A stretch of DNA of 64,000 nt from Escherichia coli (GTDB lineage: Bacteria > Pseudomonadota > Gammaproteobacteria > Enterobacterales > Enterobacteriaceae): NCBI RefSeq assembly GCF_003991155.1, contig NZ_CP031293.1; one strand, 5' to 3'. Below, in pieces: positions 48,701 to 48,999 of this stretch; positions within the stretch are counted from its first letter, which is position 1, and every line of letters starts with the position of its first letter. The notes under the pieces are model-generated. The model was not told where the DNA came from and did no database searches. It saw nothing but the letters and a program-made list of their open reading frames with translations. The translations under genes were made by a program, and so were the position numbers.

Positions 48701-48776
48701 TGGAGCGGGAAACGAGACTCGAACTCGCGACCCCGACCTTGGCAAGGTCGTGCTCTACCAACTGAGCTATTCCCGC
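48701..48776 (-). tRNA. glyY: tRNA-Gly (anticodon GCC), copy 1 of 3
   Basis: Reverse complement reads GCGGGAATAGCTCAGTTGGTAGAGCACGACCTTGCCAAGGTCGGGGTCGCGAGTTCGAGTCTCGTTTCCCGCTCCA, a canonical tRNA-Gly(GCC) with encoded CCA. Which of glyV/X/Y each copy is follows K-12 order and is uncertain. Confidence 0.95.
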
Positions 48777-48811
48777 TTGGGTGGTCTGTGCTTTACAGCA
48801 CTTTCAAATTT

Positions 48812-48887
48812 TGGAGCGGGAAACGAGACTCGAACTCGCGACCCCGACCTTGGCAAGGTCGTGCTCTACCAACTGAGCTATTCCCGC
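48812..48887 (-). tRNA. glyX: tRNA-Gly (anticodon GCC), copy 2 of 3
   Basis: Identical 76-nt tRNA-Gly(GCC) sequence, 111 bp from copy 1. Confidence 0.95.
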
Positions 48888-48923
48888 TTGGGTGGTCTGT
48901 GCTTTGCAGCACTTTTCAAATTT

Positions 48924-48999
48924 TGGAGCGGGAAACGAGACTCGAACTCGCGACCCCGACCTTGGCAAGGTCGTGCTCTACCAACTGAGCTATTCCCGC
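48924..48999 (-). tRNA. glyV: tRNA-Gly (anticodon GCC), copy 3 of 3
   Basis: Identical 76-nt tRNA-Gly(GCC) sequence, 112 bp from copy 2. Confidence 0.95.

Follow-up and report, generated by a model that had tools for sequence, protein, structure and literature searches.

A tandem tRNA-Gly(GCC) array upstream of datA in Escherichia coli: the glyV-glyX-glyY operon, its spacer hairpins and its copy-number variants

The tandem tRNA genes described here are almost certainly the chromosomal glyV-glyX-glyY operon of Escherichia coli, with three identical genes for tRNA-Gly3 (anticodon GCC). They lie in a 64,000-nucleotide stretch of DNA, the whole of which was analysed and is called the window below. 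The array is already known and well studied, an ordinary textbook tRNA operon, and its interest has been published: the glyV-glyX-glyY precursor is a model substrate for 'direct entry' by RNase E (PMC4191395), and read-through from the operon promoter PglyV-X-Y regulates IHF at the datA locus, tying tRNA production to replication timing. The small additions that our analysis makes to this picture are that the spacer hairpin covaries, that the promoter and the linkage between the gly array and datA are conserved family-wide, that copy number is polymorphic, and that an ERIC-like insertion is frequent in the first spacer. These could guide modest follow-up on spacer content in relation to tRNA maturation and datA read-through.

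An earlier note on this DNA had described three identical 76-nt tRNA genes with encoded CCA, and ARAGORN, Rfam and a sequence comparison of the copies bear this out. Exactly three tRNA genes were called by ARAGORN in the 64-kb window, all of them tRNA-Gly(GCC) on the minus strand. The anticodon was gcc (position 34) in 3/3 copies, as the note had read it. Each copy also matched Rfam RF00005 at 69.1 bits against a gathering score of 29, over the full model (1-71). The start-to-start distances of 111 and 112 bp given in the note were recovered by alignment of the units and by Tandem Repeats Finder, which reported a tandem array at 48699-48999 (period 111, 2.7 copies, 98% matches, score 588). The note had also equated the copy number with that of K-12, and MG1655 indeed has three copies, spaced 112 then 111 bp. 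Identity to K-12, spacing and neighbouring genes together, with no result to the contrary, allowed the copies to be named, as follows.

48924-48999, minus strand: glyV, tRNA-Gly(GCC), promoter-proximal copy (ARAGORN; Rfam, 69.1 bits; equals K-12 glyV)
48812-48887, minus strand: glyX, tRNA-Gly(GCC), middle copy (ARAGORN; Rfam; K-12 comparison)
48701-48776, minus strand: glyY, tRNA-Gly(GCC), distal copy (ARAGORN; Rfam; K-12 comparison)
48888-48923, minus strand: spacer 1, 36 nt, consisting of AAAUUUGAAAA, hairpin GUGCU-GCAA-AGCAC (48899-48912) and AGACCACCCAA; equals K-12 spacer 1
48777-48811, minus strand: spacer 2, 35 nt, consisting of AAAUUUGAAA, hairpin GUGCU-GUAA-AGCAC (48788-48801) and AGACCACCCAA; in K-12 the closing U-A pair is U.G

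Each tRNA starts with 5' GCGGGAA and ends with UUCCCGC-U-CCA at the 3' side, with GCC as its anticodon. The glycine identity set comprises U73, G1:C72, C2:G71, G3:C70, C35 and C36, and all of these are carried by the array tRNAs. Given their 100% identity to K-12 glyV/X/Y, they would be charged with glycine and decode GGC and GGU, the major glycine codons.

The window is the reverse complement of positions 158747-222746 of E. coli 2016C-3878 (NZ_CP029747.1), with 1 mismatch in 64,000 bases. Annotation of this near-identical strain supplied the neighbouring genes.

49210-49755, minus strand: orn
47292-48431, plus strand: queG
48414-48467, minus strand: yjeV (b4670 in K-12), 17 codons, WP_010723271.1 'hypothetical protein', overlapping the 3' end of queG on the opposite strand, inside datA

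According to the literature, a putative yjeV promoter lies over DnaA box 7 and the operon terminator. K-12 and the near-identical strain share the order orn, gly array, yjeV/queG. Window and K-12 are 99% identical between the stop codons of orn and queG; no difference at all falls in the tRNAs, the leader, the promoter core or spacer 1, and the operon as a whole differs only at one hairpin base and one terminator base. The value of the array as a landmark, which the note had suggested, is borne out by this setting: the glyVXY operon lies between orn and queG, directly upstream of datA (PMC10950094), and marks reliably a map position of about 94.7 min on the E. coli chromosome.

Elsewhere in the window, the only other match at Rfam gathering level was an RpsF leader (RF02893, 110.1 bits) at 16335-16419 on the minus strand, upstream of rpsF-priB-rpsR-rplI. 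Between rplI and ytfB (about 5003-14786), the annotation of the near-identical strain shows a nine-gene block with three TRAP transporter genes and genes for an FAD-dependent oxidoreductase, a CoA transferase, an enoyl-CoA hydratase, a sugar-phosphate isomerase, a 3-ketoacyl-ACP reductase and a TetR regulator; the K-12 content of this interval is presumably different. From yjeM/yjeO to mscM (about 55341-57304), the annotation of the matching strain gives a frameshifted IS630-family transposase pseudogene, a hypothetical protein and a second YjeO-family gene, content that is likely to be strain-variable.

The earlier note did not give the strand and made no mention of the promoter, the terminator, datA next to the array or the published studies of RNase E. 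Promoter and terminator were placed by conservation, folding and the K-12 literature. A consensus scan of 48300-49400 returned neither, the promoter being missed because its -35 hexamer matches TTGACA at only 3/6 positions and the terminator because its stem is interrupted.

49091-49120, minus strand: A/T tract (A8T8-like, 49091-49105) and 5-bp inverted repeat TTGAG/CTCAA (49104-49108, 49116-49120), between the orn stop and the -35 hexamer (sequence only)
49079-49084, minus strand: -35 hexamer TTGCAG (sequence; TTGCRG conserved in 12 Enterobacteriaceae loci)
49057-49062, minus strand: -10 hexamer TATAAT, 16 nt after the -35 hexamer, conserved
49048-49056, minus strand: GC-rich discriminator GCGCCTCCC, between the -10 hexamer and the start site (sequence and conservation)
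49000-49050, minus strand: precursor 5' leader of about 50 nt (placed from the -10 hexamer)
about 48642-48675, minus strand: operon terminator/attenuator TglyV-X-Y, an imperfect hairpin followed by GUUUUUGUUG (fold of 48600-48700)

Among 12 aligned Enterobacteriaceae loci the block TCGTATAATGCGCCTCCCGT was near-invariant, Erwinia differing at a few bases, and TTGCRG was kept 16 nt upstream of TATAAT within surrounding sequence that diverges. These conserved blocks form a clear phylogenetic footprint of PglyV-X-Y, which is documented as the operon promoter in K-12 (PMC10950094). The promoter block occurred only upstream of glyV, and the consensus scan and the 12-locus alignment revealed no promoter-like sequence in the spacers; co-transcription of glyVXY as one precursor is known from K-12 experiments (PMC4191395, PMC10950094). 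A weak hairpin is predicted in the leader (z -1.24). By analogy with stable-RNA promoters, the GC-rich discriminator may serve in stringent or growth-rate control. The element at 49091-49120 may be an UP-like element, the terminator of orn, or both; RT-qPCR suggested that a substantial part of orn transcription ends before PglyV-X-Y (PMC10950094). At the other end of the operon, TglyV-X-Y has been described as leaky and as overlapping DnaA box 1 of datA (PMC10950094). In agreement with this description, the terminator hairpin in the window overlaps the DnaA box at 48674-48682.

The 270-bp gap between glyY and queG corresponds to datA, in which pattern scans located four DnaA boxes (0-1 mismatch) and one IHF site.

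48433-48682: datA locus (pattern scans; published map)
48674-48682: DnaA box 1, ATATCCACA (pattern scan)
48607-48615: DnaA box, TTATCCACA (pattern scan)
48538-48550: IHF site, perfect consensus (pattern scan)
48445-48453: DnaA box, TTATTCACA (pattern scan)
48433-48441: DnaA box, TCATCCACA (pattern scan)

The window agrees with the published map, which puts datA downstream of glyVXY and before queG (PMC10380432, PMC13036160, PMC10950094). Of the Enterobacteriaceae compared (12 loci), Erwinia alone lacks DnaA boxes 1 and 2 after the distal tRNA, indicating that the linkage between the gly array and datA is family-wide. Kasho et al. (2024) found that transcripts starting at PglyV-X-Y continue across the IHF site of datA, and that this read-through is required for timely dissociation of IHF from datA (PMC10950094).

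Processing of the precursor by RNase E has likewise been mapped in K-12. The supplement of Clarke et al. (2014) gives RNase E sites at 4390571 and 4390572, labelled 'glyX tRNA 3' intergenic' (PMC4191395); converted with an inferred offset of 1977 between two K-12 sequence versions, these fall at window positions 48811 and 48810, the first two bases of spacer 2. A major in vitro cut lies 1 nt 3' of glyY, and annealing an oligonucleotide to the glyX-glyY spacer lowers this cut substantially (PMC4191395). The same cut also requires the upstream glyX tRNA (Clarke et al. 2023; PMC9841416). By analogy with the sites after glyX and glyY, a further RNase E site would be expected just after the glyV CCA. 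Almost every Enterobacteriaceae spacer in the comparison retains the A/U-rich AAAUUUGA after the CCA. The RNase E and datA experiments come from K-12 and not from the window strain; from glyX through the start of the glyY trailer the window differs from the K-12 RNase E substrate at one base.

These elements can be assembled into the following proposal. A single sigma-70 promoter (TTGCAG-16 nt-TATAAT-GCGCCTCCC) would give rise to a precursor of ~400 nt made up of leader, glyV, spacer, glyX, spacer, glyY and trailer. RNase E would enter it directly, with no requirement for a 5' monophosphate end, and would cut the single-stranded A/U-rich stretch (AAAUUUGAAA, or AAAUUC after glyY) 1-2 nt from each CCA, the neighbouring spacer and the neighbouring tRNA serving as extra binding elements. 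Maturation of tRNA 5' ends by RNase P and exonucleolytic trimming of 3' ends are general features of tRNA processing, and in glyVXY the same enzymes would presumably take off the 5' leaders and trim the 3' ends to the encoded CCA. The weak terminator over DnaA box 1 would stop transcription in part, so that read-through crosses the datA IHF site; such read-through, needed in K-12 for timely release of IHF from datA, would link tRNA synthesis to the control of replication initiation.

The two spacers, which the note had called near-identical and hairpin-bearing, differ at only two positions, one A in the A-run and one T/C in the hairpin loop. On the transcribed strand each spacer forms a 5-bp stem with a GNRA tetraloop, and the predicted free energy is -7.2 kcal/mol in both. 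GUGCU-GUAA-AGCAC (48788-48801) scored z -2.84, with 1/200 shuffles as stable, and GUGCU-GCAA-AGCAC (48899-48912) z -2.21, with 6/200. When the 411-nt precursor is folded in full, both hairpins still form, in the MFE as well as in the centroid structure. Neither is followed by a U-run, and a function in termination or attenuation was rejected for this reason. The note had also described the hairpin as conserved. This is so within the array, where the likeness is a trivial consequence of unit duplication, and also across genera, where it is maintained by compensatory changes.

The comparison across genera drew on a scan of species-representative genomes for two tRNA-Gly(GCC) genes lying 20-50 nt apart, which yielded at least 120 stretches. 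Among the matches listed, the Enterobacteriaceae spacers share a frame of AAAUUUGA, hairpin and CACCCAA, in which the stem arms are the following.

Escherichia, Citrobacter werkmanii: GUGCU / AGCAC
Enterobacter: GUAUC / GAUAC
Enterobacter sp. Ag1: UGGCU / AGCCA
Mangrovibacter: GGCC / GGCC
Siccibacter: UGCC / GGCA

The stems thus differ among genera and yet stay complementary at the same position of the spacer, in at least five Enterobacteriaceae genera. A MAFFT alignment of whole spacers left some stems out of register, and it was replaced by a 15-row alignment of 20 nt with hand-chosen frames. Three loops of 5 nt were shortened to 4 in it, and it was confined to genera that have the hairpin. 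In this alignment all of the pairs (5/5) had changed on both sides, 94.7% of cells were paired as against 21-43% with slid partners, and the covariation score was reached by 0/500 shuffles; these values are inflated and biased towards pairing by the hand framing, the trimming and the restriction to hairpin-bearing genera. Hairpin variants within E. coli also keep the pairing (U-A to U.G) and a GNRA loop (GCAA, GUAA or GAAA). Among the matches listed, no hairpin was present in the spacers of Kluyvera, Superficieibacter, Pluralibacter and Erwinia, indicating that it is dispensable. Judged from these comparisons, the hairpin looks selected where present, yet dispensable.

Two readings of the hairpin have to be weighed. 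We lean slightly towards its having no function, as a short palindrome copied along with the tRNA unit and homogenised by concerted evolution. Recent duplication or gene conversion predicts just such spacers as those of the window, with their two differences; the stem has only 5 bp, and several related genera do without it. Concerted evolution accounts for likeness within a genome, however, and not for different complementary stems across genera. These stems, in Escherichia, Citrobacter, Enterobacter, Enterobacter sp. Ag1, Mangrovibacter and Siccibacter, are the main support for the second reading, which we regard as plausible at somewhat less than an even chance: the hairpin would be a selected RNA element of the precursor, adding to the processing scheme above rather than replacing it. 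Its stability relative to shuffles (z -2.8 and -2.2), its survival in whole-precursor folds, the paired changes in the hand-framed alignment and the retention of pairing and GNRA loop among E. coli variants argue in the same direction, as does the finding that the allosteric groove of RNase E binds simple stem-loops as well as tRNAs (PMC9841416). Against selection stand the hairpin-free genera, the inflation of the alignment statistics and a genome sample of at least 120 stretches; moreover, the RNase E papers (PMC4191395, PMC9841416) stress access to the single-stranded spacer and the adjacent tRNA instead. If selected, the hairpin could bind as a ligand in the RNase E groove and so direct the cut to the AAAUUUGAAA stretch beside it, or it could shield the downstream leader from exonucleases or affect access by RNase P. 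Either role, groove ligand or exonuclease shield, is a conjecture.

The note had guessed that the array is a recombination hot spot, and variation among complete E. coli genomes supports this guess: alleles with 2, 3 and 4 copies occur, together with a duplicated C68T unit and a chimeric spacer. Two-copy alleles were found in ATCC 25922 and at least 27 other records, and the single spacer of ATCC 25922 is chimeric, joining the A-run length of spacer 1 to the loop base of spacer 2. Alleles with four copies (ET979, 1297KP and M8) are rare, and the difference between two whole-locus megablast counts gives an estimate of ~16 genomes. In ET979 both inner tRNAs carry C68T (G5.U68 in the acceptor stem), each followed by the same spacer type, a signature of tandem unit duplication. 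The whole-locus megablast counts at >=80% coverage (3796, 3812 and 626) are bounds and not class sizes, since the search merges separate pieces if the subject carries fewer copies or if they lie on one strand. McDonald et al. (2015) had already noted 3-4 identical copies at the array. Unequal homologous recombination would both keep the tandem units homogeneous and alter their number.

The sole clean allele count is that of an insertion junction. In 1607 of the 5426 complete E. coli genomes, the glyV-glyX spacer ends, directly before glyX, in a 121-nt ERIC-like insertion. It is exemplified by E. coli M172-1 (positions 1958-2078 of the extracted locus), and EC190329 combines it with two array copies. 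The insert is a member of a family of dispersed repeats: at about 75% identity, the median genome has 7 such places. The insert itself folds as a long hairpin (an imperfect palindrome) of -41 kcal/mol. The ERIC2 primer, in what we take to be its sequence, matches the insert with 3 mismatches. A similar element, roughly 90% identical by eye, occupies the same spacer/tRNA junction in the second spacer of Citrobacter youngae, and others occur in C. werkmanii and another Escherichia lineage. Its presence in both Citrobacter and Escherichia makes an old insert with repeated losses probable. The window lacks it: the spacers there are 35 and 36 nt long, and a BLAST search with the insert gave no match. 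The K-12 array lacks it too. When the literature was searched for an ERIC element within a tRNA operon, the papers returned all dealt with ERIC-PCR typing. We think it rather doubtful that the GNRA hairpin is a selected processing signal of enterobacterial tRNA-Gly arrays, a groove ligand of RNase E that sets the cut 3' of the CCA, and that the ERIC-like insert alters processing or datA read-through. If this were true, the 121-nt insert would change precursor processing or datA read-through in ~30% of E. coli.

That the array is instead a horizontally acquired tRNA cluster of phage or island origin, or an integration hot spot, is scarcely credible. In its favour, integration into tRNA genes is common, phages may carry clusters of them, and nine places matching the 770-bp array query sit on plasmids. 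Yet the same query found the locus in 5425/5426 complete E. coli genomes, the core genes orn and queG flank it with no integrase or phage genes nearby, and across Enterobacteriaceae there are 2-3-copy arrays that have this promoter block and DnaA boxes downstream. Synteny and conservation effectively refute a horizontal origin.

Compared with known systems, the array of the window is closest to glyV-glyX-glyY of K-12 MG1655 (b4163-b4165; 4392360-4392658 in NC_000913.3). Both have three identical tRNA-Gly(GCC) genes at 112/111-bp spacing, the same promoter block, leader and spacer 1, and the same neighbours orn, yjeV, queG and datA; the orientation in the window is reversed relative to K-12. 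The spacer-2 hairpin has A in the window and G in K-12, and the terminator hairpin G in the window and T in K-12. A few further differences lie in datA and upstream of the -35 hexamer, where the inverted repeat TTGAG/CTCAA is perfect in the window and broken in K-12 (CGCAA). The fourth tRNA-Gly(GCC) gene of E. coli, in glyW-cysT-leuZ, matches the array copies at 100%, but its operon, between pgsA and yecA, is one of mixed tRNAs, with no tandem array and no linkage to datA.

Other polycistronic tRNA precursors processed by RNase E are likewise cut just 3' of the tRNAs (PMC4191395, PMC9841416), and their cleavage likewise depends on single-stranded spacers and adjacent tRNAs. Those operons mix different tRNAs, whereas the units of glyVXY are identical, so that spacers and cleavage contexts repeat. 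Among the matches listed, tRNA-Gly(GCC) arrays also occur in other Proteobacteria, with up to 7 copies in Aeromonas and 5 in Vogesella. In the Aeromonas arrays two spacer types alternate, which suggests that two-gene units were duplicated. The Aeromonas and Vogesella arrays resemble glyVXY in the same tRNA 5' and 3' ends, the head-to-tail arrangement and the short spacers; in contrast to glyVXY, their spacers are of unrelated sequence and mostly without a hairpin.
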